A stretch of DNA of 64,000 nt, from positions 1,476,744-1,540,743 of the forward strand of contig CP129479.1 in NCBI GenBank assembly GCA_030583865.1, in the 5' to 3' direction. The position numbers were made by a program, and so were the translations under genes. This stretch comes from Thermodesulfobacteriota bacterium (GTDB lineage Bacteria > Desulfobacterota > GWC2-55-46). Below are positions 5,282 to 53,088 of the stretch, in pieces; position 1 is the stretch's first letter; every line of letters starts with the position of its first letter. The notes beneath the pieces are model-generated. The model worked only from the letters and a program-made list of their open reading frames with translations. It made no database searches and was not told the origin of the DNA.

Positions 5282-5915
5282 CCCATCTTCCTATTATTGA
5301 AGAACCTGCCCTGACCCTGTCCCCAACCTTCACGTTCGGAGACGCTCCGGCCGGGAGATATACGTCCACCCGCGAGCCGAACCGTATCATTCCGAACCTC
5401 TCGCCCTTGCCGTAGCTCATGCCCTGCCTTGCGTAGCAGACTATCCTCCTCGCAACGAGGCCGGCTATCTGGTTGAAGGCGAACCTCCTGCCGCCCTGGT
5501 CCTCCATTATGACGGCGTTCTGCTCGTTCATGAGCGAGGCCTTGTCCAGGGAGGCGTTGAAGAACCTGCCGGGGTTGTATATGACGTCCACTACCCTGCC
5601 CGGGGCAGGCACCCTGTTCACGTGGACGTTAAAGACGTTCATGAATATGCAGATGCGGAGCGCGTCGGCCTTGAGGAACTTATCGTCCTTTATCCGCTCG
5701 ACCTTTATCACCCTGCCGTCCGCGGGGCTGACTATCGCATTGGTGTCAGTCGGGATTTCCCTTTCGGGGTCCCTGAAAAACGAGACCACGAATACGGCAA
5801 GCGGCACGAAGATCGCCTCAAGCCAGCGGAGCCCCGCCATCCATACCACGATTATACAAAAAAAAGACGCCAGGATAAAGGGATAACCTTCCCTGGCAAC
5901 CGGAATCCTTGCCAA
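5274..5915 (-). CDS. psd: phosphatidylserine decarboxylase proenzyme (short archaeal-type Psd)
   Basis: 213 aa; PSD family with FGSRVD self-cleavage (G-S) site; overlaps pssA by 8 nt. Confidence 0.8.
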   Translation of the reverse strand: MARIPVAREGYPFILASFFCIIVVWMAGLRWLEAIFVPLAVFVVSFFRDPEREIPTDTNAIVSPADGRVIKVERIKDDKFLKADALRICIFMNVFNVHVNRVPAPGRVVDVIYNPGRFFNASLDKASLMNEQNAVIMEDQGGRRFAFNQIAGLVARRIVCYARQGMSYGKGERFGMIRFGSRVDVYLPAGASPNVKVGDRVRAGSSIIGRWDA

Positions 5916-11139: not shown

Positions 11140-11370
11140 CTACGCCCCCTTCTCCTCGGCGAAATCGGAAACCCTCTTCTCCATCTCGTCCTTCAATGCG
11201 AGCTTCAACTTCTTGAGCCTCATCTTCTCCATAGTCTCGTCTGCCGTGAGCCTCGGTTTTTTTTCGAGTTTTGCGACCTTGTTCTCATAGTCCTGATGGC
11301 TCTTGTAGATCTTCCTGAATCCATCGTCCTCTTCGAGAAGCTTTTTCAGAATCTCTTCGCGTCTCTCCAT
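11140..11370 (-). CDS. DUF465 (YdcH-like) family small protein
   Basis: 76 aa coiled-coil protein; HQDYENKVAKLEKKPRLTADE...LKKLKLALKDEM matches DUF465 pattern; immediately upstream of ilvD. Confidence 0.5.
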   Translation of the reverse strand: MERREEILKKLLEEDDGFRKIYKSHQDYENKVAKLEKKPRLTADETMEKMRLKKLKLALKDEMEKRVSDFAEEKGA

Positions 11371-11713
11371 TCAAGCCTCCCTTCCACTTTGAGGTCCCTG
11401 TTCCGGGTCTCCGGCATTTCCCCCTTGCAGGAAACAGGCTCACGACGTTAATAAAAAGTGCTTGTTTTTCAAGGACAAAGCTAATTTTTATAATATCGCA
11501 ACCCGGAGAGCTTGTCAATTTGTTACCAAACCGGCTTTTTTCGGCCTGTTATGGCGGGAAAAATGATTTCTTATAACGCATTCCAGCGCCCAAGTCCATA
11601 AAAAACCCGGCATTAGAATGGAAAAAACGGGGTTTTGGCTGAATCTGGAATATTGTACAGGCTGGAAAAAGCGGTTTTTTTGCGGGGACATGAGTCCCCT
11701 TCACGTTATCCTG

Positions 11714-12436
11714 TTAGCGACCGCTTTTAAGCTCTGCTTCGGATTTCCGGAGGTATATCGGGACGAGCTCCGCCGGAGAGACGGCCTCCGCCGCGTGCTC
11801 GAAAGCCAGGAGCCCTACGTTAGAAGCCCTTATGTGCCAAAGGTGGGGCAAGGCCGCGTACGCGTCCCTGAGCGCCTCGACGAGCATTTCCATGTAAACG
11901 GAAAGGCCGCTCCCCAGGAATACGACTTCCCCCTCAAGCCCCCTCCCCCTTATTTCCCCTATGAGGGCCTCGGGCCGCATCGCCGAATCGGGCATGACCG
12001 CCCTGGGGCGGCCTGACATGGTATCGTAAAGGGCGGTGTATACCTCGCCCTTTCTGGCGTCGAGCACCGGGCAGACCATCCTTGCGGAATAAGGGATGTT
12101 CATGGCGAGCGAGGCGAGGGTCGAAACACCGGCTATCTTTTTCCCCTGCGGCCACGCGAGCCCCTTTAGGGCCGATATGCCGATGCGGAGGCCAGTGAAT
12201 GAGCCCGGGCCGACATCAATGGCGAAGAGGTCTACTTCGTCGAGCCCGCACCCGGCGCTCTCAAGGTGCGCTTCAAGGGACTTAAGGAGCCAGCTGGAAT
12301 GGGTCCCCGCGTCCCCGACGGTCCATTCGGAGATGAGCTTTCTATCTTCGAGGAGGGCTATCGAGCCTGACCGGGACGAGGTATCGATTGAAAGTATCTT
12401 CAGGCAACCTCTAAAAATTAGATAATTTTCCCGCAA
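11714..12436 (-). CDS. tsaB: tRNA threonylcarbamoyladenosine biosynthesis protein TsaB (YeaZ)
   Basis: KILSIDTSSRSGSIALL and VGPGSFTGLRIGIS motifs. The annotated ATG start (12434-12436) lies inside the MITE copy at 12403-12545, so the true start is uncertain. Confidence 0.7.
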   Translation of the reverse strand: MRENYLIFRGCLKILSIDTSSRSGSIALLEDRKLISEWTVGDAGTHSSWLLKSLEAHLESAGCGLDEVDLFAIDVGPGSFTGLRIGISALKGLAWPQGKKIAGVSTLASLAMNIPYSARMVCPVLDARKGEVYTALYDTMSGRPRAVMPDSAMRPEALIGEIRGRGLEGEVVFLGSGLSVYMEMLVEALRDAYAALPHLWHIRASNVGLLAFEHAAEAVSPAELVPIYLRKSEAELKSGR

Positions 12437-19981: not shown

Positions 19982-20629
19982 CTATTCGCCAGTCCGCCAG
20001 GCTATCTCGCCCCTGCCCATAACCCCGGTCACCACGAGCTTCAACGTGCCGTCTGCACCTGGCAGCTCCGTGCCTTCCTCGGAATATCTCGGGAATTGGA
20101 CACTATAAGCCCTGCTCCAGAGGTCGAAATACGGGAAGAACTCCCTTATGAAAGCCTCTGTGCCCTCGACCCTGGAAATGGAGATCGGCCTCGCGCGGTT
20201 ACCGCTCCCGTCCTCGAGATAGACCTGCCAGACCGAGTCCCTGCGGTCGAAGTCGTTAACGGCCGCGTCAGGCGTATAGGCCGTAAAGAAGACCTCGTTA
20301 TACTTCTCGGCCTGTTCAAGCTCCCGGGCAAGTAGCGCTTCCTCGCGCTCCGGGCCGAGCGCGTAGCTTTCGCCGTACTTCCTTATGTAGGCCCTTCTGA
20401 ACTCCTCGCTCTTGTAAGTGGCGTTCAGGTAAAGCCTTGATTCGAGCTTCTCGTGCAGCCTGACCCCGCCTGACCAGCGGTCCAGCACCTTATGGTAGGG
20501 CGGCTCAGGGGCCGGACCCTTTGCGCAGCCCTGAAAAAAAATCGCCGAGAGGGCCAGCAGGCAAAGGACCGCTGAAAACACCCTGCCTCCCCGCCTGGCT
20601 ATTCCCTGTTTGAGAACGCGCGTTAGCAT
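19982..20629 (-). CDS. hypothetical lipoprotein
   Basis: 215 aa; signal peptide with lipobox FFQGC; no recognised domain. Confidence 0.5.
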   Translation of the reverse strand: MLTRVLKQGIARRGGRVFSAVLCLLALSAIFFQGCAKGPAPEPPYHKVLDRWSGGVRLHEKLESRLYLNATYKSEEFRRAYIRKYGESYALGPEREEALLARELEQAEKYNEVFFTAYTPDAAVNDFDRRDSVWQVYLEDGSGNRARPISISRVEGTEAFIREFFPYFDLWSRAYSVQFPRYSEEGTELPGADGTLKLVVTGVMGRGEIAWRTGE

Positions 20630-25230: not shown

Positions 25231-26325
25231 CTATTCCGCCGGGATGGTGTATATCCACCCGCGCTTGTCCTCTATCTCTCCGTACTGGAGGCCTGTTATA
25301 TGGTCGTAGATTCTCTTCGATAGCGGGCCGGTCTCGCCGCGGTTGATGGTGATTGACGCGCCCTGGTGGTGTATCTCGCCTACGGGCGATATGACGGCTG
25401 CCGTGCCTGTGCCGAAGGCCTCTTTCAAGCTCCCCTTTTCAGAGGCTGCGAAGACCTCGTCTATTGAGATCTTCCGCTCCGAGACCTTAAGGCCCCAGTC
25501 CCGCGCGATAGCCATGACCGAGTCGCGGGTTACGCCAGCGAGCACCGAGCCGCCGAGGGCCGGGGTCACGAGCTCGTCTTCGAGGAGGAAGAACATGTTC
25601 ATGGTGCCGACTTCCTCTATGTATTTTTTCTCGACCGCGTCGAGCCACAATACCTGCGTAAAGCCCTTTTTCTTGGCCTCCTCCGCTGGCAAAAGGCTTG
25701 CCGCGTAGTTCGCCGGGGTCTTGGCCTCTCCGAGCCCGCCCCTTACGGCACGGACATACTCCCCGGGAGTGGTGAGCTTGACCGGGTTTATCCCCTCTTT
25801 ATAGTACGCGCCCACGGGGGAGGTTATGATGAGGAACTTGTATGTGTCGGAGACTTTAACGCCGAGATAGTTGTCGGTGGCGAATATGAACGGCCTTATA
25901 TATAGCGCGCAGCCTCTTTTCGGCGGCACCCAGCCCCTGTCAGTCCGTATAAGCGTGTGAAGGCCCGCGATGAAGTCCTGATAGGAAACCGGTGGTATGC
26001 AGAGCCTCTTAGAGGAACGGAGCATCCTTTCATGGTATTTCTCGGGCCTGAATATGTTTATGGAGCCGTTAGGGGCGCCAAAAGCCTTGAGCCCCTCGAA
26101 AATGGCCTGCCCGTAGTGGAGTGTGGTGAGCGCCGGGGAGACCTCGATATTGCCGAAGGGGACGACTGCCGGGGGGCCCCACATGCCGTCACTGAAGTCC
26201 ATTGAGAGCATGTGGTCGGAAAAGACGGTGCCGAAGACCGGGTTTTCGAGGATGCCGGGGGTGAGCCTGCTCTCCTTGACCCTCCTTACCTCGACATTTT
26301 TCAGGAACGGCATATTATTGGACAT
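25231..26325 (-). CDS. ilvE: branched-chain amino acid aminotransferase
   Basis: Class IV PLP aminotransferase; starts MSNNMPF. The 40 upstream ORF codons are unlikely to be coding. Confidence 0.85.
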
Positions 26326-26521
26326 TTTCCCTTGCGAGGAGTGCGGCTCCCTTCGGAAACCCGGATTTTTCAAAGGGGTTTCTCCGCACAGGGGCCGAAA
26401 AACGAGCTTTCTCCGGATATCCGGAGAAAAATTAAAATAACCCAAAAAAGGGCAAATGACAAGAGCGAAAAGAGGCGTGGAATCGTATTTAGAGGGGCTG
26501 GCCAGGCGGGAGAGCGCCGGC

Positions 26522-26995
26522 TCAGGCGCCCTGGCTCGAAGGGAGCCTCGCTATCATCTCCATTGCTTTTCTGATGATATCCTTCTCGTCCTTGAACCTC
26601 ATCATGCCGGCAGCCTCGCCTATCGGGACCCACCTGCACTCGTCGACCTCCTCGTCGTGGTCCTCGACCCTGCCTGACGTATACTCCATGAGGAAGAAAT
26701 ACACTATCTTGAATATCCTCCTGGTCTCCGCGCCCTCCTTCAATGTAAAGAAATACTCGATATGCCCTATCTTCTCGATTATCCTGCCGTCAAGGCCAGT
26801 CTCTTCCCTCACCTCCCGGTGCGCGGTCCTGGCGAGGTTCTCGCCTTTTTCAGCCGTGCCCTTGGGAAGCCCCCAGACCTTGCCGCCGCGTACGGAAATG
26901 AGCGCGATCTCGACCGTCCCTTCGCTTTTTCTTCTGAAGATAACGCCGCCCGCCGAAATCTGGCGCTCCGCCACGTGCCCCTCCGATACGGTCAA
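26522..26995 (-). CDS. NUDIX hydrolase
   Basis: 157 aa; Nudix box GX5EX7REVREETGL. Confidence 0.8.
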   Translation of the reverse strand: MTVSEGHVAERQISAGGVIFRRKSEGTVEIALISVRGGKVWGLPKGTAEKGENLARTAHREVREETGLDGRIIEKIGHIEYFFTLKEGAETRRIFKIVYFFLMEYTSGRVEDHDEEVDECRWVPIGEAAGMMRFKDEKDIIRKAMEMIARLPSSQGA

Positions 26996-27092: not shown

Positions 27093-28007
27093 TCAGCAAT
27101 GCCCTTCTATCCTGTGCAGCCCCTCTTTGCGCGCGGTCTCAACCGCTTCGTCCAGTTCCGTTCCCGTGGTCCTTCTCGACAGACGCCTGTCTTCAAAGGC
27201 CCTGTATACAGGCCTGTACTGGCCCATGATGTTTACATAGGTGTCCGCGGATACGTCCTCGGACAGGAAGCGCATTACCTCCTCCGTGCCGGCAAGGCCG
27301 TCCGGCAGGACCAGGTGCCTTACGATGAGGCCCCGGCGGGCGATATTATCCAGCCCGGTCTCAAGGTCTCCGACCTGCCGGTGCATCTCCATAACCGCCT
27401 CCCTGGCCTTCGAAAAATATCCGTGTACGCCTGAAAGCTCGAGGCCCATCCGGTCGGAGCCATACTTGATGTCCGGCATGTATATATCGAATACGCCTTC
27501 AAGCAGCCGCAGCGCATCGACCGAGTCATAGCCGCCCGAGTTGTAGACGAGCGGCACCTCGAGGCCGTTCTCAATCGCAAGGGGAAGGCTTTCGGCAATA
27601 TGCGGCGCCTGGTGGGTCGGGGTGACGAGGTTTATGTTATGGCAGCCTTCTCTCTGGAGGCGGAGCATCATTGAGGCGAGCCCCTCGGAAGTCACTTCCC
27701 TCCCGTCTCCGGAGCGGCTTATCTCATGGTTCTGGCAGAAGACGCACTTAAGATTGCAGTACGAAAGGAATATCGTGCCGCTGCCGTATCGGCCCGAAAG
27801 CGGCGGCTCCTCCCCGAAGTGCGCGATGGCAGCGGAAACTTGCGGAAGCGCGCCGGAACGGCAGACGCCGGTCTCCCCGTCAAGGCGTCGTGCGCCGCAT
27901 CTCAAGGGGCAAAGCCTGCACGGAGATAGCATGGCCCTGAGCCCCCGTATCCTCTCAAAGAGCTCGCCGGTCTCGTAAAGCCTTATGTAGCCCGGACGGA
28001 AACCCAT
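27093..28007 (-). CDS. radical SAM protein, PflX/COG1313-like (PFL-activase homologue)
   Basis: 304 aa; CNLKCVFCQN CxxxCxxC motif; N-terminal CxxCxxxC...C cluster. Confidence 0.72.
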   Translation of the reverse strand: MGFRPGYIRLYETGELFERIRGLRAMLSPCRLCPLRCGARRLDGETGVCRSGALPQVSAAIAHFGEEPPLSGRYGSGTIFLSYCNLKCVFCQNHEISRSGDGREVTSEGLASMMLRLQREGCHNINLVTPTHQAPHIAESLPLAIENGLEVPLVYNSGGYDSVDALRLLEGVFDIYMPDIKYGSDRMGLELSGVHGYFSKAREAVMEMHRQVGDLETGLDNIARRGLIVRHLVLPDGLAGTEEVMRFLSEDVSADTYVNIMGQYRPVYRAFEDRRLSRRTTGTELDEAVETARKEGLHRIEGHC

Positions 28008-28112
28008 ACACGGACATTATATCAGGAACGGCTCCCCGGCAGGAACGGAAATCGGTCCTGCCGTACGGGCAATTGCCGTACGCTTCAGCGTAAGTCCCTA
28101 AGCGCGGGGATG

Positions 28113-28502
28113 TCAGAGAGTGGGCTTCCTGCCCCCGGACTGCTCTTCGAGCTCGGTCTGGCACTTGAGGCAGTGCTCGGCGTAAGGCATGGCCTTGAGC
28201 CTCTCGTCCCCTATCTCGGCCCCGCACCTGCTGCAAGCGCCGTACGTGCCCTCGTCCAGCTTCCGTAGGGCCACTTCCATCCTCTCGAGCTCCTGCCGCC
28301 TAAGGTCCGAGACCGAAAGGCCGAGGTCTTCGACAAGGTCAAGGACCGACAGCTCCTCGAGGTCGTGAGGTATGTCGAACTGGTCGCTGTAGTCCTTCCC
28401 GAATTTCCTGAATATCTCTTCCCTCAGCTCGTTCCACACCTTGCGCTTCCTGTCGAGGATGAGCTTTTTATGCCCTGCCTTGTGGTTGTCGTTCCGGTTC
28501 AT
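28113..28502 (-). CDS. DksA/TraR-family C4 zinc-finger protein
   Basis: 129 aa; coiled-coil plus CSRCGAEI...CLKC zinc finger. Confidence 0.7.
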   Translation of the reverse strand: MNRNDNHKAGHKKLILDRKRKVWNELREEIFRKFGKDYSDQFDIPHDLEELSVLDLVEDLGLSVSDLRRQELERMEVALRKLDEGTYGACSRCGAEIGDERLKAMPYAEHCLKCQTELEEQSGGRKPTL

Positions 28503-28529
28503 CGGCTGAGACCTCCTTTATAGGCCTTA

Positions 28530-29738
28530 TCAGCATACCGGGTGCTCGCCCCTGGCCAGCTCTTCGGTAAACGAAGGTATCCGCAAAAGGAACTCGTCGA
28601 TTATCTTCCTCACTCCCTTTTCGTAACGGTCCCTGCCGGCCCTGCCGTCGGGTATCACCTGCACAAAGACCTGCTTCGGCTCGTCTATTGGCCTCCCGAT
28701 CTCGCTCAGGAGCCAGACGGATACCTCCTTGACGCCATTGACGCTCTTGTATATCTCGGAAGCCATGAGGTGCGACAGTATCGAGTATATCTTCCCCACG
28801 TGGCTTACCGGATTTTTTCCGGCTGCCGCCTCGGTGCCCATCGGGCGGTTGAGGGAAATGACCCCGTTTACGCGGTTCCCTCTCCCCACCTGGCCCGAGT
28901 CCGCGTCCTCGGCGGAGGTGCCGAGAAGCGTGAGGTATACGCCCCTGGTGCCCTGTCCTTTCATGTCGAGAGAATTGAGGTTGAGAGTGATTTCAGAAAA
29001 CGGGAAACCCGACAGGAAGTCCCTGATCGCGGTATGCATCTCCTTTTTCTTTTTGAAGTAGGCAGCCTCGCTCTGTATAAGACCCGCCAAAAGCGGGCAG
29101 GCGACCGTCAAATCGAGCTCGCTTCCAGTCCTTACGCCCATCACCTTCACGTCCGAGCCTGCCTCGGGGAAACGAAGCTTAAAGGCCTCGGAATTTATGA
29201 AGCGCTCGGTGGCCAGGACCGCGCGCTCGGCGGTGGTAAGCGGCGCGTATCCCGCCGCAGCGGAAGTGTCGTTCGCGACCCTCACCCTGCCGCGCCTCTC
29301 GAATATCCCTGCAAGCTCCTCGGAGCCCGGCTGCAGTACGACCCTGACCTTAAGGTGCTCTTGAGGGTCAACGTGCGGGAGGTTCTCGGCTACCCAGGAA
29401 CGGACTGTCCGCTTGACGATATCCTCGACCGGGACGCGTGAGTCGCCAATCCCGTAAGAGGCCCTGTCGCCGACGATTAGCTCCATTGGCTTCAAAACCT
29501 TTCCGCTGCCGAAGCCCTTTTCCACCTGCCCTGCCACGAGCAGGCCCTTGTCGATGTTATGATGGAGGACGGCGCCGAATCTTTCCATGTATTCGCGGCT
29601 CAAGGCAACCGAAATCCTATCCATGACAGCGTCGCAGATGGAGTCGGGGTGCCCGGTCCCCTTCCTCTCGACTATCTCCACGGCCTGCTCGGAAACGGCC
29701 ATGTTAGTAGAGACCTCGACGGTCTTCTGCATTGTCAC
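28530..29738 (-). CDS. S-adenosylmethionine synthetase, archaeal type (PF01941 family)
   Basis: 402 aa; near-collinear with Methanocaldococcus MAT: EIVERKGTGHPDSICD, VANDTS, YLTLLGTSAE, GRGNRVNG, GKNPVSHVGKIY. Confidence 0.8.
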   Translation of the reverse strand: MTMQKTVEVSTNMAVSEQAVEIVERKGTGHPDSICDAVMDRISVALSREYMERFGAVLHHNIDKGLLVAGQVEKGFGSGKVLKPMELIVGDRASYGIGDSRVPVEDIVKRTVRSWVAENLPHVDPQEHLKVRVVLQPGSEELAGIFERRGRVRVANDTSAAAGYAPLTTAERAVLATERFINSEAFKLRFPEAGSDVKVMGVRTGSELDLTVACPLLAGLIQSEAAYFKKKKEMHTAIRDFLSGFPFSEITLNLNSLDMKGQGTRGVYLTLLGTSAEDADSGQVGRGNRVNGVISLNRPMGTEAAAGKNPVSHVGKIYSILSHLMASEIYKSVNGVKEVSVWLLSEIGRPIDEPKQVFVQVIPDGRAGRDRYEKGVRKIIDEFLLRIPSFTEELARGEHPVC

Positions 29739-29796
29739 CCGGTCCCCGTTGAATTAGGCCGAAAAGGCGAGCCGGCAGGTTACTGAAAAGCCCCCT

Positions 29797-29900
29797 TTGG
29801 GGGAAACTTTCTATAGAAAGTTTCCCCCCACCCCCCCTTCAAAGATTAGTTGTTCCTGAGATGACCCCCATGAATGGGGGTCATCTCAGGAACAACTAAA
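29797..29900. repeat. palindromic repeat family C copy 2
   Basis: Perfect palindrome ggaaactttctatagaaagtttcc (29802-29825) flanked by C/G runs; perfect 24-bp-stem hairpin tagttgttcctgagatgaccccca / tgggggtcatctcaggaacaacta (29848-29898). Sits in the 5' region of the archaeal-type MAT gene. Confidence 0.7.
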
Positions 29901-30039
29901 AACTTTTGGAGAGAGGTTAGGTCCAATGGATGCGAACGTGATACATGAGGCTATTCGCCTCCTGAGCCCTATGAGCATCCAATGGCTCTAGAACCTTTTT
30001 ATAAAAAGGTCCTCTCAAGGGTTTTATGCACCTGCAGCT

Positions 30040-30651
30040 TCACTTTTTCGGCTTCTTCGAGTACCTTTCCATCTTGCTGTATATGCAGCCGCAGTATTTC
30101 TGCCTGTAGAGGCCGAGGGCCCTGGAGGCGTCGATTCCATCCTGCCAGAAGGCCCTGAAATCCTCATAAAGGAAGAGTATGCCGTACTTTCCGGCTAATT
30201 CAATGCCTGCGCTCCTTATGGCCCCGTGGTCCTGGTACCTGCTGTAGAGAAGAGAGGATGTGAAGACGGGAAACCCGAGCGAGCTCGCGGCCCGCGCCGT
30301 AGCCTCAAGCCTCAGGTAATAGCAGTATTCGCACCTCTTCCCCGTTTGCGGGAAACCTGGGCCAGCGTGCTCTTTCATGCCCTTGAGGAACGTTGAGGGC
30401 CTGTATTCCTCGTCATAGATGACGTTCAGGGAGAGGTGGCGGGCAAGCTCCTTTGCTGCGGCAATCCTTTTCCTGAATTCCGAAAGGGGGTGGATGTTCG
30501 GGTTATGGAAGAAACCTGTGACCTCGGCCTTGCCGTCAAGGAGTGATTTTAGCGGCATGATGGAGCATGGGCCGCAGCAGATGTGCGCAAGCACTACCGC
30601 ATTGCCGCCGCCTATCGCAGGTAGGTCCTTTATGGATATGGCCTCTTTCAT
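30040..30651 (-). CDS. queH: epoxyqueuosine reductase QueH (DUF208)
   Basis: 203 aa; HICCGPCS motif and C-terminal CxxC. Confidence 0.75.
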   Translation of the reverse strand: MKEAISIKDLPAIGGGNAVVLAHICCGPCSIMPLKSLLDGKAEVTGFFHNPNIHPLSEFRKRIAAAKELARHLSLNVIYDEEYRPSTFLKGMKEHAGPGFPQTGKRCEYCYYLRLEATARAASSLGFPVFTSSLLYSRYQDHGAIRSAGIELAGKYGILFLYEDFRAFWQDGIDASRALGLYRQKYCGCIYSKMERYSKKPKK

Positions 30652-30731
30652 TGGAGACCCGTTGTTTTGGATTTGGAATTGGCGTACTTTCGTGTACGCC
30701 GGAGTGTGCAGATGGATTTTTCAGCAGCCTG

Positions 30732-31763
30732 TTAAAACAGCCCGTCATGCTTCCCCGCGCTCGCCGTCTTCCTGTAGGGCCTTCCCAGGTGCGCGTACGC
30801 GAGCTCCGTAGCGACCCTGCCCCTGGGGGTCCTGTTGAGATACCCCTCCTGCAGGAGGTAGGGCTCGTGGAGGTCCTCGATGGCGTCCTTCTCTTCATGG
30901 AGCGCGGATGCAAGCGCCTCTATGCCCACCGGCCCTCCGCCGAACTTGTCTATTATGGTGAGGAGCATCCTCCTGTCCATCTTGTCGAACCCTTTCGAGT
31001 CTATCTCGAGCATGGAGAGCGCGCCTGAGGCGACGTCCCTTGTTATGACGCCCTTTGCCTTGACCTGGGCAAAGTCCCTCACCCGCCGCAAGAGCCGGTT
31101 CGCCACCCTCGGGGTACCCCTCGACCTCCCGGCTATCTCCTCCGCGCCGTCGTCGGTTATCTCGACATCGAGTATGGAGGCCGAGCGCGCGACTATGGTC
31201 TTGAGCTCGGAAGCGGCATAGAAATCGAACCTCAGCATCACGCCGAACCTGTCCCTCAGGGGCGAGGTAAGGAGCCCGGCCCTGGTAGTCGCGCCGATGA
31301 GGGTGAACTTCGGAAGCTCTATCTTCACCGACCTCGCCGAAGGCCCCTGGCCTATCAGGATATCTATGTGGTAGTCCTCCATTGCCGGGTACAGTATCTC
31401 CTCGACGGCCGGGGTAAGCCTGTGTATCTCGTCTATGAAGAAGACGTCCCTGTCCTCGATGTTGGTGAGCATGGCCGCAAGGTCGCCCGCCTTGTCTATG
31501 ACAGGGCCCGAGGAGGCCTTTATCTGGCTCCCGAGCTCGTTGGCGATTATCATTGCCATCGTGGTCTTGCCGAGCCCCGGGGGGCCGTAGAAAAGCACAT
31601 GGTCGAGCGCCTCTCCCCTGCCCTTCGCGGCCTGTATGAAGACCTTGAGGTTCTCCTTGAGCTTCTCCTGCCCTATGAAGTCGTCCAGGAGCCTGGGCCG
31701 GAGCGTAGCCTCTAACTCGTCTTCTTTAAGCTTCGCGGGCGTTATCTCGCGCTCGTCTTCCAT
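30732..31763 (-). CDS. ruvB: Holliday junction branch migration ATPase RuvB
   Basis: 343 aa; Walker [10 protein letters not shown]. Confidence 0.93.
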
Positions 31764-31767
31764 TCGT

Positions 31768-32379
31768 TCATGTCCTTGTCTTTGAAATGAGCCTGAGCGA
31801 TTCCTTCAATACCTCTTCGAAGGCAGGCTCGTCGCCGAGCGAGCGGGCCGCCTTCTTTGCCGCCTCCTCGGCGGGCACGCTCCTGTAGCCGAGGTTCTCG
31901 AGGGCAGACACAACGTCGCTTACGAGCGGGTCCTTGCCGGACGCGGGCTCTTCCTGAGGCGCGCCCTTGAAGGATATTGAGCCTATCTTGTCCTTAAGCT
32001 CCAGGATGAGCCTCTCGGACGATTTTGCCCCGATACCCGGGATTGAGCCGAGCCGCGCCTTGTCCGACGAGCCTATGGCCTGTATGAGGTCGCCTACCGC
32101 GACACCTGAGAGGATGTTCCGGGCAAGCTTCGGACCCACGCCCGAGACGCTTATCAGGAGCTGGAAGACCTCCTTCTCCTCCTGGGTAAGAAACCCGTAC
32201 AGCTGTATGGCGTCCTCCCTCAAATGGGTATGGACCCGGAGGCTTACTGTCTCGCCGTTTTGAGGGAGGGTGTAGAAAGTGGACAGCGGGATGAAGACCT
32301 CGTAGCCCACCCCGCCGGTCTCGACGACCACCGATTCGGTCGTCTTGTGTATTATGCGCCCTTTTATGCTGGCGATCAT
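31768..32379 (-). CDS. ruvA: Holliday junction DNA helicase RuvA
   Basis: 203 aa; MIASIKG...GVGYEV start. Confidence 0.9.
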
Positions 32380-32906
32380 ATGGTGCGCCTGGAGGGTAAA
32401 ACTGCGGCCTCCCCTTTTATGCGGAGGCTGGAAGAATGGCTGTTAAGGTGGCAGATGGCGAGGGCTAGGGCGTCGGTCGCATCATTTTTTCCTGCGATAA
32501 GCCCGGTCTTGAGGAGAAGCCCCACCATCTTCTGCACGTCTTCCTTTGCGGCCCTGCCGTTTCCGGTCACGGCCTGCTTGACCGAGGCAGGGGAATACTC
32601 GTAGACCGGTATGCCGAACTCGGCGACGGTGACGAGCAGGGCCCCCCTCGCCTGCCCGAGCGTAATGGCGCTCCTCGCGTTCTTCGCGTAAAAGACCGAT
32701 TCGAGCGAAACGGCTTCGGGCCTGAACTCTTTTATTATCTCCCGTAGCCTCGTGGATATGCAGAGGAGCCTGGCGGAAAGCGGAAGCCCGCCACCGGGAG
32801 ATATGTCCCCGTGGCAGACGCGGACGAGCGCATTGCCCTTTCTCTCCACTATTCCGTATCCTGTAGAGACGCTTCCGGGGTCGATTCCCAGGACCATAGT
32901 TTTCAC
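32376..32906 (-). CDS. ruvC: crossover junction endodeoxyribonuclease RuvC
   Basis: 176 aa; LGIDPGS...GYG; overlaps ruvA start by 4 nt. Confidence 0.9.
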   Translation of the reverse strand: MKTMVLGIDPGSVSTGYGIVERKGNALVRVCHGDISPGGGLPLSARLLCISTRLREIIKEFRPEAVSLESVFYAKNARSAITLGQARGALLVTVAEFGIPVYEYSPASVKQAVTGNGRAAKEDVQKMVGLLLKTGLIAGKNDATDALALAICHLNSHSSSLRIKGEAAVLPSRRTI

Positions 32907-32921
32907 CTTGAAGGCTGCTAT

Positions 32922-33674
32922 TTAGGAGGCGATGCTCGACATCTCCTCAGGCGGGATGTCGAAGTTGGCGTACACGGACTGGACGTCGTCCAGGTCCTCC
33001 AGCTCCTCAAGGAGGTTAAGCACCTGCCTGGCGGACTTGCCCTCGACCCTAACCGTGGTCTTCGGCACCATCGCTATGTCGGAATGCGAATAGCGGACCT
33101 CGGCCTGGTCAAAAGCCGTTTTGACCCTGGCGTATTCAGTGGGCTCGGTATACACCTCGAAGACCCTGTCGTCCTGGTTAGTAACGACGTCCTCGGCCCC
33201 GGCCTCGAGCGCGGCCTCCATGAGCTTTTCTTCAGTGATCGAGCCCATGTCGAATGTGAAGACGCCCCTTTTTTCAAACATGTACGCGACCGAGCCGCTC
33301 TGGCCCAGGCTTCCCCCGAAACGCGAGAACGCGTGCCTCACCTCGGAAGCGGTCCTGTTCCTGTTGTCGGTCATGAAGTTCACTATGACGGCGACCCCGC
33401 CGGGCCCGTAGCCCTCGTAGACGCCTTCTTCGTAGACGACGTTTTCGAGCTCGCCCGCACCCTTCTTTATGGCCCTGTCTATATTGTCGGCAGGAAGGTT
33501 CTCTGCCTTGGCCTTCTCGACCGCGAGCCTGAGCCTGGGGTTCCCCGCCGGGTCGCTCCCGCTCTTGGCCGCTACCATGATCTCCTTCACGAGTTTCGTG
33601 AAGACCTTGCCCTTCTTCGCGTCAGACTTGGCCTTCTTGTGCTTGATGTTGGCCCATTTGGAATGCCCTGCCAT
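32922..33674 (-). CDS. yebC: YebC/PmpR family DNA-binding transcriptional regulator
   Basis: MAGHSKWANIKHKKA start. Confidence 0.88.
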   Translation of the reverse strand: MAGHSKWANIKHKKAKSDAKKGKVFTKLVKEIMVAAKSGSDPAGNPRLRLAVEKAKAENLPADNIDRAIKKGAGELENVVYEEGVYEGYGPGGVAVIVNFMTDNRNRTASEVRHAFSRFGGSLGQSGSVAYMFEKRGVFTFDMGSITEEKLMEAALEAGAEDVVTNQDDRVFEVYTEPTEYARVKTAFDQAEVRYSHSDIAMVPKTTVRVEGKSARQVLNLLEELEDLDDVQSVYANFDIPPEEMSSIAS

Positions 33675-33879
33675 TGAACCACCCCGTTGAGACTTTTTCT
33701 TAGGAACATAGAAACACACGATTCATAACACAAAACGGCCTGCTTTTCAATTTACAATCTGAAGGGGCGAGCCGTATCCAGGTCCGGGAGCGGGGCGCTC
33801 AGGTTCCTTATGTTATACTAAAAATAGGATTCGACGGCTCCCATATCTGAGCACTGCGGCAAAAAGCCGGAAAAGGAGC

Positions 33880-46853: not shown

Positions 46854-47699
46854 TCAGCTCCTGGTCTTGCCGGAGTAGTAGGCGACCCTGGTGGACTTCT
46901 CCTCTTCGCCCCAGAGTATGCATTTGGTGGGGCACCTCTTGACGGACTCGTCCGTCTGGGGCGCGAGCGAGTAGTCGACGACCGCGAGGTTGTTCTTCAT
47001 GGCTATGCCGCCGGGGACGCTGCAGTCCTTTACGCAGAGGCCGCAGGCCACGCAGGCCACCTTGCAGACCTTCCTCGCGTAGGCGCCCTTATCGAGGTTC
47101 TTGCAGTAGACGAAGAGCTTCCTGTCCTCCGGGTGCATCTCTATTATGTCCCTTGGGCAGGCCCTCGCGCAGGCCCCGCACCCGACGCACTTGTCGTAGA
47201 AGACGACCGGAAGCCCGTTGTCGTTCATGGCCATCGCGTCGAACTTGCACGCGGCCACGCACTCGCCGAGCCCGAGGCAGCCATAGGTGCAGGACTTGTC
47301 GCCGCCCGTGAGGTGCGAGGCCGTGCAGGTGCCCTCGCCCCTGTACTCGGCCCGCCTTTCGGCCTCGGCGTTCCCGCCCCTGCAGAGCACGACCGCCAGC
47401 ATCCTCTTCATGCTCCCGGCCTCGACGCCGAGGATCCCGGCGAGCTCCGCGGCGGTATCGTTCCCGCCGGCAACGCAGGCCGTGGGTAGCGCTTCGCCCT
47501 TCATGAGGGCCTCGGCGAACATCCTGCAGCCTGGGTAGCCGCAGCCGCCGCAGTTGGTGTTTGGGAGCGCTGCCGAGATGGCCTCTACCCTGGGGTCCTC
47601 CTCGACCTTGAGCTTCCTGTCGGCGTAGACGAGGAAGACCGCCATGACGGCGCCGATTGCGCCCATGCTGACGGCTGATATCACGAGAGTCTCAAGCAT
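46854..47699 (-). CDS. rnfB: Rnf electron transport complex subunit B
   Basis: 281 aa; N-terminal TM; CGGCGYPGC; multiple 4Fe-4S ferredoxin motifs. Confidence 0.85.
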   Translation of the reverse strand: MLETLVISAVSMGAIGAVMAVFLVYADRKLKVEEDPRVEAISAALPNTNCGGCGYPGCRMFAEALMKGEALPTACVAGGNDTAAELAGILGVEAGSMKRMLAVVLCRGGNAEAERRAEYRGEGTCTASHLTGGDKSCTYGCLGLGECVAACKFDAMAMNDNGLPVVFYDKCVGCGACARACPRDIIEMHPEDRKLFVYCKNLDKGAYARKVCKVACVACGLCVKDCSVPGGIAMKNNLAVVDYSLAPQTDESVKRCPTKCILWGEEEKSTRVAYYSGKTRS

Positions 47700-48296: not shown

Positions 48297-48938
48297 TTAG
48301 TGCGAGGCCGGCTCAGCCGCCCCGGCCTCCCTTGCTGCCTTCCTGCTCGACATCCAGCCCACGAGCGCGACAAGCGCCCCGAGGACGAGGAAAGCACCCG
48401 CAGGGAGTATCATTATTATCCAGGGCTCGAACCACGAGCCGAGGAGCTTAAAGCCGAAGACGCTCCCGAACCCCAGCACCTCGCGGATTACGCCCATGAG
48501 CGTGAGGCTCATGGTGAACCCCAGGCCTATGCCGAGCGTGTCCATCGCGGTAGGGATGAGCGGGTTCTTCTGCGCAAAGGCCTCGGCCCTTCCGAGTATG
48601 ATGCAGTTCGCGACTATGAGCGGTATGTACGGCCCGAGCGCCTTTGAGATGGCCGGGAAGACCGCCGCGAGGAATATGTCCGTCACGGTCACGAGGGTCG
48701 CTATGACGACAACGTACGCCGGTATCCTCACCTTTGCCGATATGGTCCTCCTTATGAGGGATACGACCATGTTTGAGGTGAAGAGGACGAAAAGGGTCGC
48801 AAGGCCCATGGAAAGGCCGTTTATCGCGGAGTTCGAGACAGCTAGCGCAGGGCAGAGCCCGAGGAGCAGCCTGAAAGGCGCAATATCCTGCCAGAGGCCC
48901 TTCTTGAACTCGTAAAAGAGGCTCCTATCTTGCCGCAT
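48297..48938 (-). CDS. rnfE: Rnf complex subunit E
   Basis: 213 aa; RnfE/NqrD family. Confidence 0.9.
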   Translation of the reverse strand: MRQDRSLFYEFKKGLWQDIAPFRLLLGLCPALAVSNSAINGLSMGLATLFVLFTSNMVVSLIRRTISAKVRIPAYVVVIATLVTVTDIFLAAVFPAISKALGPYIPLIVANCIILGRAEAFAQKNPLIPTAMDTLGIGLGFTMSLTLMGVIREVLGFGSVFGFKLLGSWFEPWIIMILPAGAFLVLGALVALVGWMSSRKAAREAGAAEPASH

Positions 48939-49585: not shown

Positions 49586-50638
49586 TCAGCCCTTACCCGC
49601 CTTTACCGCGCCGAATACCCTGGGCCTCGTGTGCTTGTTGAGAAGCGGCACAAAGGCGTTCATGAATAGTATCGAATACATGACCCCCTCGGGAAGTCCG
49701 CCGAATATCCTTATGACCACCGCCATTATCCCGGCAACTATGACGAATATCCACTGGCCGAGCGATGTCGTCGGAGAGGTCACCATGTCGGTCACCATGA
49801 ACCATGCCCCGAGCATCGCGCCGCCGGCAAAAAGATGGAAGAGCGGGTTCGGGTACTTGGCCGGGTCTACGAGCCAGAATATGGCCGAGAAGGCGGCTAT
49901 GGTGCCGAGATAGCCAAGGGGGAGCTTCCAGTTTATATATCCCTTGTACCTCAGGTACAGGCCGCCTATTATTATTGCCAGGGCCGAGGTCTCGCCGAGC
50001 GAGCCAGCCGTGTTGCCGAGGAACATGTCCAGGAGGTTGAAATCCATGTCGCCCTCGAACTTCCAGAGCCCTATCGGGGTCGCGGCGGTCACCGCGTCCA
50101 CGGCCTTTTCCACCGTCCTCGGCTCCACCCATGTCGTCGTAAGGACCGGGTAGGTCGCCATGAGGAACGCCCTCCCGAGGAGCGCCGGGTTGAATATGTT
50201 GTAGCCGAGGCCGCCGAATAGCTCCTTCCCCACCCCTATGGCGAAAAGGGACCCGAGCACCGCGCCGTAGACCGGGAAGCCGGCGGGAAGGGTCATGGCG
50301 AGGAGCATGCCGGTTATGACCGCGCTGCCGTCGTGTATCTTTACGGGCTTCCTCCGTATCCTCTGGAAGGCGTATTCGGTAGCGAGGCACGAGGCCACGC
50401 AGACTATTATGAGAAGGAGGGCCCTCCACCCGAAGAAATAGACGCTTGCCGCGGTCGCGGGCATGAGGGCCATGACGACCGTGTGCATTATCTTAGGTAT
50501 GCTCTCCTCGGCCATGAAGTGCGGCGAAGTGGATACAATGAGCTTCGCGGCGGCGGCCGGGGCCTCTGCAACGGCCGATTCCCTGACCTCGGGCTTGCCT
50601 ATCGCGCTATCAGGCGTATTCGTCGTCTTCTGGTCCAT
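49586..50638 (-). CDS. rnfD: Rnf complex subunit D
   Basis: 350 aa; RnfD/NqrB family multi-TM. Confidence 0.9.
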   Translation of the reverse strand: MDQKTTNTPDSAIGKPEVRESAVAEAPAAAAKLIVSTSPHFMAEESIPKIMHTVVMALMPATAASVYFFGWRALLLIIVCVASCLATEYAFQRIRRKPVKIHDGSAVITGMLLAMTLPAGFPVYGAVLGSLFAIGVGKELFGGLGYNIFNPALLGRAFLMATYPVLTTTWVEPRTVEKAVDAVTAATPIGLWKFEGDMDFNLLDMFLGNTAGSLGETSALAIIIGGLYLRYKGYINWKLPLGYLGTIAAFSAIFWLVDPAKYPNPLFHLFAGGAMLGAWFMVTDMVTSPTTSLGQWIFVIVAGIMAVVIRIFGGLPEGVMYSILFMNAFVPLLNKHTRPRVFGAVKAGKG

Positions 50639-50685: not shown

Positions 50686-52026
50686 TCACTTCGCGCCCTG
50701 GGCCTTGCGGGCCTCCTGGCGGAGCCTGAGCTTCCCGACCCGTATCCACTGTATCAGGGGCCTTTTCGCGGGGCACACGTAAGAGCAGCAGCCGCACTCT
50801 ATGCAGCTAAGGCCGTCAAGGGCGCTGAACTCGGCGGTCATCTGAAGCTTTCCGTAATCCCCAAGCCTGTAGGGCATGAGGCCCATAGGGCAGACCTCCA
50901 CGCAGCTGGCGCACTTTATGCAGGGCTCGTACGGCTTCGACCTTATCTCGTCGGCGGAGATGACAGTGATGCCGGTCGTTCCCTTCGTGACCGGCACCGC
51001 GAGAGTCGATTGCGAATTTCCCATCATGGGCCCGCCGTTAAGGACCTCTAGCTCTTTCCCGACGAGCCCGCCGCACTGCGCGATAACCTCCTCGAAGAGG
51101 GTACCCACGCGGACCTTGAGGTTCTTCGGCTCCCTTACGCCGTTCCCGCTTATGGTGACCACCCTCTCGAAGAGGGGCTTCCCCCAGTTGAGGGCCTCGA
51201 ATACGGCGACCGCCGTGCCCACGTTATTTACGAGGACCCCGACGTCGAACGGGAGCTTCCCCGGGGGCACTTTCCTACCCACGGCGGCCGATATCAGCAT
51301 CTTCTCGGCACCCTGCGGGTACTTGGCCTCGAGGACGATTATCTTTATCTCAGGGGAGCCGGATACCGCCTTTGCAAGGGCCTCAATCGCGTCAGGCTTA
51401 TTCTCCTCAATGCCTATGAAGCCCTTTGACGCGCCCGAGGCCCTCATGAGGGCCTTGAGCCCCCAGACCACCTTTTCCGGCTCCTCGGCCATTATCCTGT
51501 GGTCTGCCGTAAGGAACGGCTCGCATTCGCAGCCGTTAAGTATGACCGTATCCACGGCCCTACCCTTAGGGGGCGCGAGCTTGACCGATGAAGGGAAGGC
51601 CGCCCCTCCCATGCCGACTATCCCGGCCTCCCTTATGGCCTGGCGCACGGCCTCAGGCTGGAGCGTTCCGACGTCAACGCCTTTGGTGCCAGTGCCCCAC
51701 TCCCTTCTCAAGCCGTCGCCCTCGATTATGACAGAGGCGCACCTGTAGCCGTTGGGGTGGTTTGCAAGCTCGATATCCTTCACTTTTCCGGAGATGCTCG
51801 CGTGGACCGGGGCGGAGACGAAGGCCTTGACGTCGGCTATCTTCTGTCCTTCCTGGACAGACTCGCCCTTCTTGACAAGGGGCTCGCAGGGCGTTCCGGC
51901 GTGCTGCTGCAGCGGTATGACTACCGTCCTGGGCAGGGCAGCCGGCTCGACCCTCTTGCCGGAAGTAAGCTCTTTATAATAAGAGGGATGGATCCCTCTT
52001 TCAAACGTCCTGTGTCCCATTCTCAA
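50686..52026 (-). CDS. rnfC: Rnf complex subunit C
   Basis: 446 aa; NADH-binding GMGGAAFP; two C-terminal 4Fe-4S motifs CIKCASCVEVCP / CIECGCCSYVCP. Confidence 0.9.
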   Translation of the reverse strand: MRMGHRTFERGIHPSYYKELTSGKRVEPAALPRTVVIPLQQHAGTPCEPLVKKGESVQEGQKIADVKAFVSAPVHASISGKVKDIELANHPNGYRCASVIIEGDGLRREWGTGTKGVDVGTLQPEAVRQAIREAGIVGMGGAAFPSSVKLAPPKGRAVDTVILNGCECEPFLTADHRIMAEEPEKVVWGLKALMRASGASKGFIGIEENKPDAIEALAKAVSGSPEIKIIVLEAKYPQGAEKMLISAAVGRKVPPGKLPFDVGVLVNNVGTAVAVFEALNWGKPLFERVVTISGNGVREPKNLKVRVGTLFEEVIAQCGGLVGKELEVLNGGPMMGNSQSTLAVPVTKGTTGITVISADEIRSKPYEPCIKCASCVEVCPMGLMPYRLGDYGKLQMTAEFSALDGLSCIECGCCSYVCPAKRPLIQWIRVGKLRLRQEARKAQGAK

Positions 52027-52066: not shown

Positions 52067-52401
52067 GATAATTAGAGCTCAGGATCCGGGACCATCCCCC
52101 CAGTGCCGTCCCTGCTCGACCAACTCACAATAAAAAAACCGTCACGGCACCGCATCCAGCAATCGTAAATGCTGAATGTTTGGCCCAGACGGTCGGCAAG
52201 CGCACTGTTATTCCCGCTCCCCGGTGGTTGCCCACCTTGATTCCGTCAGTTACGGGAAAATTTTATGGGGAATTTATTAGAAACATCTTAATCCAGGACC
52301 GCGGGCCTTGTCAAGGATTAATCGAATTGAAATCCCGGTGCGGAAGCCTTTCCGGCGTACCCTGCCAAAGCGCAGGGGACATTGCAAATTGCCCGGCGCG
52401 C

Positions 52402-53088
52402 CTATTCATCCCCCCTGAATAGCCACACAATAAGGGACGCCGCGGCCATGATGAGCCCGGCGCCGACGAGCAAAACGCTCAAAGCAGTCATGGGTAAAAC
52501 CGATTGGGCTGCCCCCGCCTCTCCGAGCGCCGTCGTCCGCAGGCCCGCTATGATGAGCGATAGAGGATAGAAGAAGCTCCCGGTCCCGAGCAAGGCCGCT
52601 GCCAGGGCCCTGGCCCATGAACTTACCGGAACCCAGGCCAGCATCAGGGATATGCTTATCGTGAGCACGCCGAGGCCCATCGCGTGGACATGGGCACTTG
52701 CGAGCAGTTCATGCGCGGCCCTCATATCGCGGCTCTCGCCTGAATCGGAATGCGCATCCTCGTGTCCGCCATGCATTTCATGCCCGGCGTGGGCGTCCAT
52801 TCCGTCCGGCACGGACATGCCGCTGCCTTCATGCCCGTGAAGGCCGCCCTCAATGTGCGAGTGTCCGTTCCCCTGCCTTGCGCCGTGCGCCCCATGCCCT
52901 CCCCCGCTGCTCAATACGAACTTCTCCGCGATGGAGGCCTTTTCGGCAAGACCGAGCTCCGTGTGTATGTCTTCGTGGTAGACCGTAATGTAGACCGCCC
53001 AGAAGACCCCGAAGACCACGCACGAAAGCCCGAGCAAAAGACCTATCCCCACAACCTTCAGTTCACGTCCCGCCTCTTTTTTCTTCAT
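52402..53088 (-). CDS. His-rich 4-TM membrane protein (putative metal-binding)
   Basis: 228 aa; ~70-aa loop with 18 His (HGAHGARQGNGHSHIEGGLHGHEGSG...HAGHEMHGGHEDAH); start overlaps htrA stop by 1 nt. Confidence 0.5.
   Translation of the reverse strand: MKKKEAGRELKVVGIGLLLGLSCVVFGVFWAVYITVYHEDIHTELGLAEKASIAEKFVLSSGGGHGAHGARQGNGHSHIEGGLHGHEGSGMSVPDGMDAHAGHEMHGGHEDAHSDSGESRDMRAAHELLASAHVHAMGLGVLTISISLMLAWVPVSSWARALAAALLGTGSFFYPLSLIIAGLRTTALGEAGAAQSVLPMTALSVLLVGAGLIMAAASLIVWLFRGDE

Follow-up and report, generated by a model that had tools for sequence, protein, structure and literature searches.

The window, a 64-kb stretch of the chromosome of a Thermodesulfobacteriota bacterium, carries on its minus strand a gene (28530..29732) for a methionine adenosyltransferase (MAT, or S-adenosylmethionine (SAM) synthetase) that belongs to the archaeal class (PF01941) and not to the bacterial MetK class, although the chromosome is bacterial. 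We consider it probable, at roughly 80%, that the gene encodes a functional PF01941-class MAT that has been inherited vertically within an old housekeeping block, in a lineage that shares this class with several others among the bacteria. The gene has long been resident, as a vertically inherited core gene, in an uncultured lineage recorded under the names "Deltaproteobacteria" and Thermodesulfobacteriota.

The open reading frame is uninterrupted from 28530 to 29738 on the minus strand, which gives 402 residues when counted from the GTG at 29738. The ATG at 29732, two codons 3' of this GTG, is kept as a start in the alignment with the loci of two sister genomes, namely L001 (JABTVA010000009.1, "Deltaproteobacteria bacterium isolate H5_GWC", MAT 92% identical) and L002 (DIDN01000030.1, "Deltaproteobacteria bacterium UBA5799", MAT 87% identical). 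The 400 residues counted from this ATG are the usual length among homologues of the protein. The exact protein sequence was absent from the records in a contig index look-up, where the best match was 98% identical.

The sole Pfam family of the protein is PF01941 (AdoMet_Synthase), matched with an E value of 5.2e-153 and 510 bits, for a gathering score of 27. This match covers positions 4 to 395 of the 395-position model and is thus a full-length PF01941/COG1812 assignment above the curated threshold. No match to the three MetK families PF00438, PF02772 and PF02773 was obtained at E ≤ 0.01 in the same scan. The protein also scored 582.6 bits with the NCBIfam equivalog NF003363, "methionine adenosyltransferase", versus a trusted cut-off of 557. 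In the PDB, the sequence matches were to archaeal MATs only, with E values from 1e-83 to 1e-95 (4L4Q at 9e-95, 6S81, 4HPV and 7P83).

An AF2 model built from an alignment of 31 sequences (pLDDT 87.2, pTM 0.88) was compared with known structures using Foldseek. It superposes on the archaeal MATs 4K0B, 4L4Q, 7P83 and 6S81 with TM scores of 0.91 to 0.93; for bacterial and eukaryotic MetK structures the TM scores are 0.53 to 0.63, at identities of 13 to 18%. The model contains an N-terminal strand (E2-7) and displays the archaeal-specific fold, with three domains, the N-terminal strand and an extended central sheet. The reading of the gene as an archaeal-type SAM synthetase, made in the first-pass annotation together with a proposal to weigh PF01941 against the three MetK families, is therefore borne out, well beyond chance, by the family assignment, the equivalog score and the fold, with PF01941 alone matched and no assignment to bacterial MetK obtained.

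The active site of the enzyme from Thermococcus kodakarensis (TkMAT) is defined by nine residues (Schlesier et al., PMC3853416). Mapping through the HMMER alignment showed that all nine positions are retained, eight as identical residues and one with Asp replaced by Glu. The catalytic GHPD signature, which is common to all SAM synthetases (PMC1282579), was located by motif scan and residue mapping at G29-H30-P31-D32 (29643..29654, minus strand), and is followed by S33, which makes the stretch of residues 29-33 GHPDS. H30 corresponds to His33 of TkMAT and to His14 of the E. coli enzyme, and this histidine has the role of catalytic acid (PMC3853416, PMC1282579). TkMAT His62, Asn64 and Asn161, which bind the methionine carboxylate (PMC3853416), correspond to H59, N61 and N156, while Asp201 and Asp283, which hold the ribose hydroxyls, correspond to D196 and D280, and Tyr271, which stacks on adenine, corresponds to Y268. 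The catalytic histidine, the adenine-stacking aromatic residue and the two ribose aspartates of the PF01941 class are hence present as H30, Y268, D196 and D280.

The remaining two positions lie in the flexible gating loop, which spans residues 145-155 in TkMAT (PMC3853416) and approximately residues 141-152 here (29283..29318, minus strand; mapped via the HMMER alignment to 4L4Q). TkMAT Leu145, which contacts the methionine side chain, is conserved as L142, and Asp144, which contacts adenine N6, is conservatively replaced by E141; among the archaeal-specific substrate contacts, H59, N61, N156 and L142 are thus identical and Asp144 is the one that differs. The pLDDT of the AF2 model is lowered to 60-71 in the gating-loop stretch. 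Across the 31 bacterial and archaeal sequences aligned, 97 columns are invariant, including GHPD, residues of GTSAE(D)ADSGQVGRGNR, and EAAAGKNPVSH.

By homology with the solved archaeal enzymes, the protein is predicted to be a homodimer whose subunit interface contains two active sites. There, the 5' carbon of ATP would be joined to L-methionine, giving SAM and triphosphate, and the triphosphate would then be split by the enzyme into pyrophosphate and phosphate. In this scheme His30 of the GHPD motif would serve as the catalytic acid, Tyr268 would stack against the adenine, Asp196 and Asp280 would grip the ribose hydroxyls, His59, Asn61 and Asn156 would grip the methionine carboxylate, and Glu141 and Leu142 would be carried on the loop that shuts over the substrates. 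Both the enzymatic activity and the dimeric state are predictions from sequence. NTP promiscuity is known for the MAT from Methanocaldococcus jannaschii (PMC8727953) and, together with the change from Asp144 to Glu141, leaves room for another nucleotide specificity.

The characterized archaeal MATs (T. kodakarensis 4L4Q, P. furiosus 6S81, S. solfataricus 4HPV/4K0B and M. jannaschii 7P83) belong to the same Pfam family and are collinear with the window protein over approximately 385 residues. They share its fold, its catalytic histidine, the His/Asn/Asn hold on the methionine carboxylate and an acidic gating-loop residue for the adenine amino group. The window protein is, however, just 37 to 42% identical to them and has Glu instead of Asp144. 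It comes from a bacterium of mesophile type that has ruvABC, queH and sigma-54 regulators, and kinship with these enzymes does not imply thermostability. Moreover, its closest archaeal kin are sequences from Bathyarchaeia and Aenigmatarchaeota, and not from the characterized Euryarchaeota or Sulfolobus. The likeness is much closer to the members of NF003363 (PRK04439.1-2) found in metagenome-assembled genomes (MAGs) of Deltaproteobacteria and Thermodesulfobacteriota, which are 59 to 98% identical among the best 120 of about 8000 homologues and have an identical neighborhood. Nothing of substance sets the window apart from them, except for its 307-nt spacer between queH and the MAT gene.

MetK (PF00438 + PF02772 + PF02773, TIGR01034; E. 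coli 1RG9/1P7L) catalyzes the same reaction and has the three-domain architecture and the GHPD histidine in common with the archaeal class. It is a distant homologue of it (PMC1282579, PMC3853416), which was matched by Foldseek at an E value of approximately 1e-14. The two classes differ in that MetK uses other residues to bind the methionine carboxylate and the adenine N6, and in that MetK forms tetramers whereas the archaeal class forms dimers (PMC3853416). Of the MetK hallmarks (the three S-AdoMet_synt N, M and C domains and the motifs GHPDK, GAGDQG and GGGAFSGKD), GHPD, followed by serine, was the only one found in the window protein. BLASTP with E. coli MetK aligned 18 residues around GHPD with an E value of 0.023, and in tblastn the same query retrieved from the window the GHPD stretch of this gene alone. 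Neither GAGDQG nor GGGAFSGKD occurs in the protein or in any of the six reading frames of the window. An earlier remark that the protein has no GHPDK or GAGDQG motif is therefore right as to GAGDQG and as to the lysine, but GHPD itself is present, as GHPDS.

The window is otherwise that of an ordinary bacterial chromosome. It contains leuC, leuA, ilvC, ilvB and ilvD; rseP, dxr, cdsA, uppS, frr (RRF), pyrH, tsf (EF-Ts) and rpsB; purF, purL and a class-IV aminotransferase gene; two sigma-54 response regulators and an NtrY-like kinase; and genes for cytochrome c biogenesis, Rnf, a multihaem c7 cytochrome and glycosyltransferases. Next to the MAT gene and on the same strand, the invariant upstream neighbor is queH (epoxyqueuosine reductase, 30040..30651; PF02677, E = 7e-58), which is preceded by the housekeeping block yebC-ruvC-ruvA-ruvB (30732..33719; Pfam RuvB_N, RuvA_N, RuvC and TACO1/YebC). 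Downstream, 27 nt 3' of the MAT stop codon, starts a gene for a DksA/TraR-type C4 zinc-finger protein of 129 residues (28113..28502, minus strand; PF01258, E = 2.4e-13), which scores under the cut-offs of every DksA equivalog of NCBIfam. It is followed by a gene for a radical SAM protein of 304 residues (27093..28007, minus strand; PF04055, E = 4e-11), for which no NCBIfam family exceeded its cut-off, and by a NUDIX hydrolase gene (26522..26995, minus strand; PF00293, E = 2e-20). The description of the neighbors as bacterial is upheld by this survey, with QueH, the DksA/TraR zinc finger, the radical SAM protein, NUDIX, RuvB, RuvA, RuvC, YebC, PurF, PurL, EF-Ts and RRF all recognized.

This arrangement is conserved. 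The window is collinear with the two sister MAGs, L001 and L002, at a DNA identity of 83 to 94%, and the order yebC-ruvC-ruvA-ruvB-queH-MAT-dksA-like-(radical SAM)-NUDIX-(methyltransferase)-(aminotransferase)-purL-purF recurs at MAT identities of 78% (L003 and L004), 69% (L005, a 768-kb NCBI contig) and 63% (L006 and L007). In L003 to L007 the yebC-ruv genes keep their order and the dksA-like gene its position, always following the MAT gene within this synteny clade, to which the assemblies GCA_016177845.1 and GCA_040960315.1 also belong; the NUDIX gene, further downstream, is likewise conserved in the block. The radical SAM gene is a variable insert, present in the window, L001, L002 and L005 and missing from L003, L004, L006 and L007, and the class-I methyltransferase genes found in the same block of relatives are variable inserts as well, with the MAT gene invariant. 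At least six independent assemblies (NCBI, ENA, JGI and Logan) contain the queH|MAT|dksA-like junctions.

Selection and composition were assessed in the same region. The dN/dS ratios of the MAT gene versus its orthologues in the two sister genomes are 0.141 and 0.104, which fall within the range of 0.04 to 0.20 observed for its neighbors (purL, ruvB, yebC, queH and others). Its GC3 of 0.761 corresponds to a z score of -0.26, only one of the 32 genes compared has a more typical codon usage, and the GC profile is flat. Because its composition is native, it is under purifying selection and its synteny extends down to 63% identity, the gene is an old resident of this chromosome.

Two readings that would take the gene out of this role were weighed against the evidence above. 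That archaeal DNA was acquired recently, or was joined to a bacterial contig by an assembly or binning artifact, might be suspected from the fact that PF01941 is best known from archaea and that the first-pass annotation saw the gene as foreign to its context. The same junctions with queH and the dksA-like gene, however, recur in independent assemblies, the GC content, GC3 and codon usage are indistinguishable from those of the neighbors, and among the matches listed the nearest relatives are all bacterial, the nearest archaeal sequences being just 51 to 54% identical. With native composition and conserved synteny, a recent transfer or a chimera was rejected, and we regard it as extremely improbable. 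Also very unlikely, although less so, is that the MAT fold has been kept for a different product, made for example from a methionine analogue or from an NTP other than ATP, or that catalysis has been lost. Archaeal MATs do accept varied NTPs and substrate analogues (PMC8727953), and one gating-loop residue has changed conservatively, but every catalytic and substrate-binding position is kept, the invariant columns of the alignment number 97, and the score is above an equivalog-level cut-off.

A different matter is whether this enzyme stands alone in the cell. No bacterial-type metK was found in the 64-kb window or in the two 21-kb loci L001 and L002, which together correspond to approximately 2% of a genome; in the window, tblastn and the six-frame motif scan agree on this, as had been stated from the first inspection. 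A canonical metK located elsewhere would make the gene of the window an accessory paralogue, serving some growth condition or the neighboring SAM-consuming enzymes. Absence of metK from 64 kb says little at the scale of a genome; the second gene downstream codes for a radical SAM protein, and class-I methyltransferase genes occur in the block of relatives. Against this, the MAT gene sits in a stable core-gene block and not in an accessory island, it is invariant while the radical SAM and methyltransferase genes come and go, its constraint and codon usage have the values of a core gene, and the two MAT classes were nearly perfectly anti-correlated in a genome survey (PMC2481427). We therefore consider an accessory role possible but rather unlikely. 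That the archaeal-class enzyme is the main or only SAM synthetase of the cell is somewhat more probable than its opposite, and its housekeeping role is suggested by genomic context and constraint. The genome-wide replacement of MetK, which core-gene behavior and the anti-correlation of the classes favor, has about even odds or slightly better. An even chance is given to the broader scenario, in which PF01941 would be the sole SAM synthetase of the lineage, and perhaps of the Nitrospirae, Nitrospinae, Actinomycetota and Dictyoglomus carriers, following an ancient and complete displacement of MetK that became fixed in a core operon of ruvABC, queH, MAT and the dksA-like gene.

The spacer between queH and the MAT gene (29733..30039, minus strand) is unusually long, at 307 nt, compared with 15 to 78 nt in the relatives L003 to L007. 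It is enlarged by a palindromic repeat, and three palindromes, perfect or nearly so (29846-29899, 29799-29828 and 29990-30013), make up much of it, with terminator-like matches in the inverted-repeat and terminator scans. A second copy of the composite palindrome was found in the leuC-leuA spacer (2838-2902), and the element looks like a genome-specific REP/MITE-like insertion. A promoter scan revealed no sigma-70 promoter in the queH-MAT spacer. The gap between the MAT gene and the dksA-like gene is 22 to 45 nt in most relatives, and the short gaps to both queH and the dksA-like gene in these genomes suggest that the MAT gene is co-transcribed with these neighbors as part of an operon.

It had also been proposed that the enzyme class dictates which SAM riboswitch could control the gene. 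This link fails, because riboswitches reside in the mRNA leader, whatever the fold of the enzyme encoded. Scanning the window at the Rfam gathering scores revealed no SAM riboswitch (SAM-I/II/III/IV/V/VI, SAM/SAH or SAM-Chlorobi), and the sole match at these scores was a ZTP riboswitch 22 kb from the MAT gene. A permissive Rfam scan of 28000-30700 returned just sub-threshold miRNA-like matches on the palindrome hairpins. In the alignment of the window with L001 and L002 there is no conservation of the leader beyond the start-codon region. Control by a riboswitch or by a conserved leader was therefore rejected, given the negative Rfam scans and a leader that does not align with genomes that are 83 to 94% identical.

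A word-indexed search scored about 8000 homologues of the protein. Among the best 120 of these, at 59 to 98% identity, all named matches are called "methionine adenosyltransferase" and come from Deltaproteobacteria or Thermodesulfobacteriota MAGs. An exhaustive search of representatives at 50% identity gave 1854 clusters at E ≤ 1e-3, the nearest other clusters being approximately 50% identical to the window protein. In one of these (P0124) the MAT gene lies between mnmE-rsmG-parA-parB and priA, a plainly bacterial setting; in another (P0129) it adjoins a phage large terminase gene, which places the class on phage-like contigs as well; and a member of a third (P0132) is named Thermoprotei. A profile search with the sister clusters retrieved sequences named by NCBI as Actinomycetota, Nitrospinae, Nitrospirae, Dictyoglomus/Dictyoglomaceae and Deltaproteobacteria MAGs, which interleave by score with Bathyarchaeia and Aenigmatarchaeota. 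The Nitrospinae, Actinomycetota and Dictyoglomus labels are NCBI MAG names, for which mis-binning of single contigs is possible, and bacterial origin by gene context was checked for the window clade and for P0124.

The protein is 55 to 58% identical to those of the other bacterial groups, 51 to 54% to those of Bathyarchaeia and Aenigmatarchaeota and 42% to that of Thermococcus, which runs counter to the euryarchaeal affinity first ascribed to it. In a neighbor-joining (NJ) tree calculated from 67 sequences (200 bootstrap replicates), the synteny clade of the window is monophyletic with a support of 74%, and the Nitrospirae and Actinomycetota groups are supported at 95% and 100%, respectively. 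Deeper nodes all have a bootstrap below 35%, and for this reason the tree allows no statement on the donor lineage or on the number of transfers. Of the ancient lateral transfer proposed in the first-pass annotation, the antiquity is supported by native composition, dN/dS values of 0.10 to 0.14 and synteny.

The rarity implied at the outset did not survive these searches: the class is found widely among bacteria, NCBIfam has an equivalog dedicated to it, and GenBank MAGs already name it correctly. An archaeal-class MAT in a bacterium is therefore a correct but ordinary observation, already catalogued, for which standard annotation gives the proper name. The published record is different. A survey from 2008 described the archaeal MAT class as restricted to Archaea (PMC2481427), a 2021 study of the divergence of archaeal MATs used bacterial MetK as an outgroup only (PMC8727953), and a 2024 preprint places PF01941 in LUCA (bioRxiv 2024.04.13.589375). 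Our literature search found no description of bacterial PF01941 enzymes, nor activity, oligomer or transcript data on any bacterial member of the family.

For the window itself the finding matters little, and the wider point is of modest value: the databases are ahead of the papers, with the "archaeal" MAT present in several bacterial phyla and on phage-like contigs under annotation that is already right. Trees or ancestral reconstructions of the "archaeal" MAT without bacterial and viral members are incomplete. If the enzyme is indeed the sole synthetase of its host, then this, together with the phage copies, would make the name "archaeal MAT" a misnomer, and the split between archaea on one side and bacteria plus eukaryotes on the other, as used in arguments on LUCA and early divergence (PMC2481427, PMC8727953, bioRxiv 2024.04.13.589375), would need to be re-examined with bacterial and viral sequences. 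If MetK is lacking, these lineages would show that an essential, GroEL-dependent enzyme can be replaced in nature, and mesophilic MATs, possibly promiscuous for substrates, could be drawn from the carriers for making SAM analogues.

A small gene for a DksA/TraR-type zinc-finger protein lies 3' of the SAM synthetase (methionine adenosyltransferase, MAT) gene in all of the examined members of the synteny clade, including those with MATs only 63% identical to that of the window. It occupies positions 28113-28502 (minus strand) in the window and 11226-11612, 11387-11770, 11264-11647 and 5108-5491 in the syntenic relatives L003, L005, L006 and L007, respectively. The window protein scores 60 bits, which is far below every DksA equivalog cut-off (105 to 289 bits). 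Therefore, judged from its sequence, the gene product is a divergent DksA-like protein, closely linked to the SAM synthetase.

Comparison of the window with L003 to L007 revealed that the interval containing the dksA-like, NUDIX and aminotransferase genes is a variable slot. A radical SAM protein of 304 amino acids (27093-28007, minus strand), for which no family scored above the cut-off, is encoded in the window, in the sister loci L001 and L002, and in L005, and is missing from L003, L004, L006 and L007. A class-I SAM methyltransferase of 322 amino acids is found in L003, L004 and L005 but not in the window. Each of these inserted genes encodes a SAM-using protein and neighbours the SAM synthetase gene. 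The class-IV aminotransferase was called mechanically in the window as an ORF of 404 amino acids starting at TTG (25231-26445, minus strand). Its orthologues are called at 357 to 360 amino acids, and the Pfam domain begins at residue 115 of the window ORF; the real start is probably located about 45 codons downstream of the TTG.

The leader of the MAT gene contains a composite palindromic element that occurs in two copies in the window, one in the leuC-leuA intergenic gap (2838-2902) and the other in the queH-MAT intergenic gap (29797-29899). The element reads GGGGGAAACTTTCT(A/G)TAGAAAG(T/G)TTCCCCC, then ...TTCCTGAGA(T/A)GACCCCC. Its arm pattern had no matches in 100 shuffles, and the observed count of a shorter core pattern was reached by no shuffle. 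The element is missing from the orthologous queH-MAT position of L001 and L002, whose DNA is 83 to 94% identical to the window; it is apparently a REP/MITE-like repeat specific to this genome that has extended the MAT leader to 307 nt.

Elsewhere in the window, a ZMP/ZTP riboswitch (52176-52263, minus strand) was matched over the full model with 63.5 bits, versus a gathering score of 39. On the same strand, about 150 nt downstream, starts rnfC (50686-52026), which opens an Rnf cluster that also encodes RnfD (49586-50638), an Rnf-Nqr subunit (48297-48938) and an Fe-S RnfB-like protein (46854-47699). Since the usual targets of ZTP riboswitches are purine and folate genes, it would be unusual for one to control an Rnf electron-transport operon. 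Three minus-strand ORFs, of 609 (62068-63897), 228 (52402-53088) and 215 (19982-20629) amino acids, matched no Pfam family at E≤1e-5. The last of these corresponds in position to an unannotated gene of 217 to 232 amino acids adjoining the FGE-sulfatase gene in L003 and L005.

MAT genes of the PF01941 class were also found on virus-like contigs, at 7387-8589 of L010 (JGI 3300033149) and at approximately 6001-7155 of L011 and L012 (IMG/VR UViGs of 82 and 75 kb). In L010, a large terminase subunit gene (PF17289, with PHROG terminase matches) directly precedes MAT, which is followed by a DNA-methyltransferase-like gene and SAM-dependent methyltransferases; in L011, PHROG matches to clamp-loader and exonuclease lie nearby. 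Phage-borne "archaeal"-class SAM synthetases might have a part in phage DNA methylation or in counter-defence, and could also act as vehicles of between-domain transfer.
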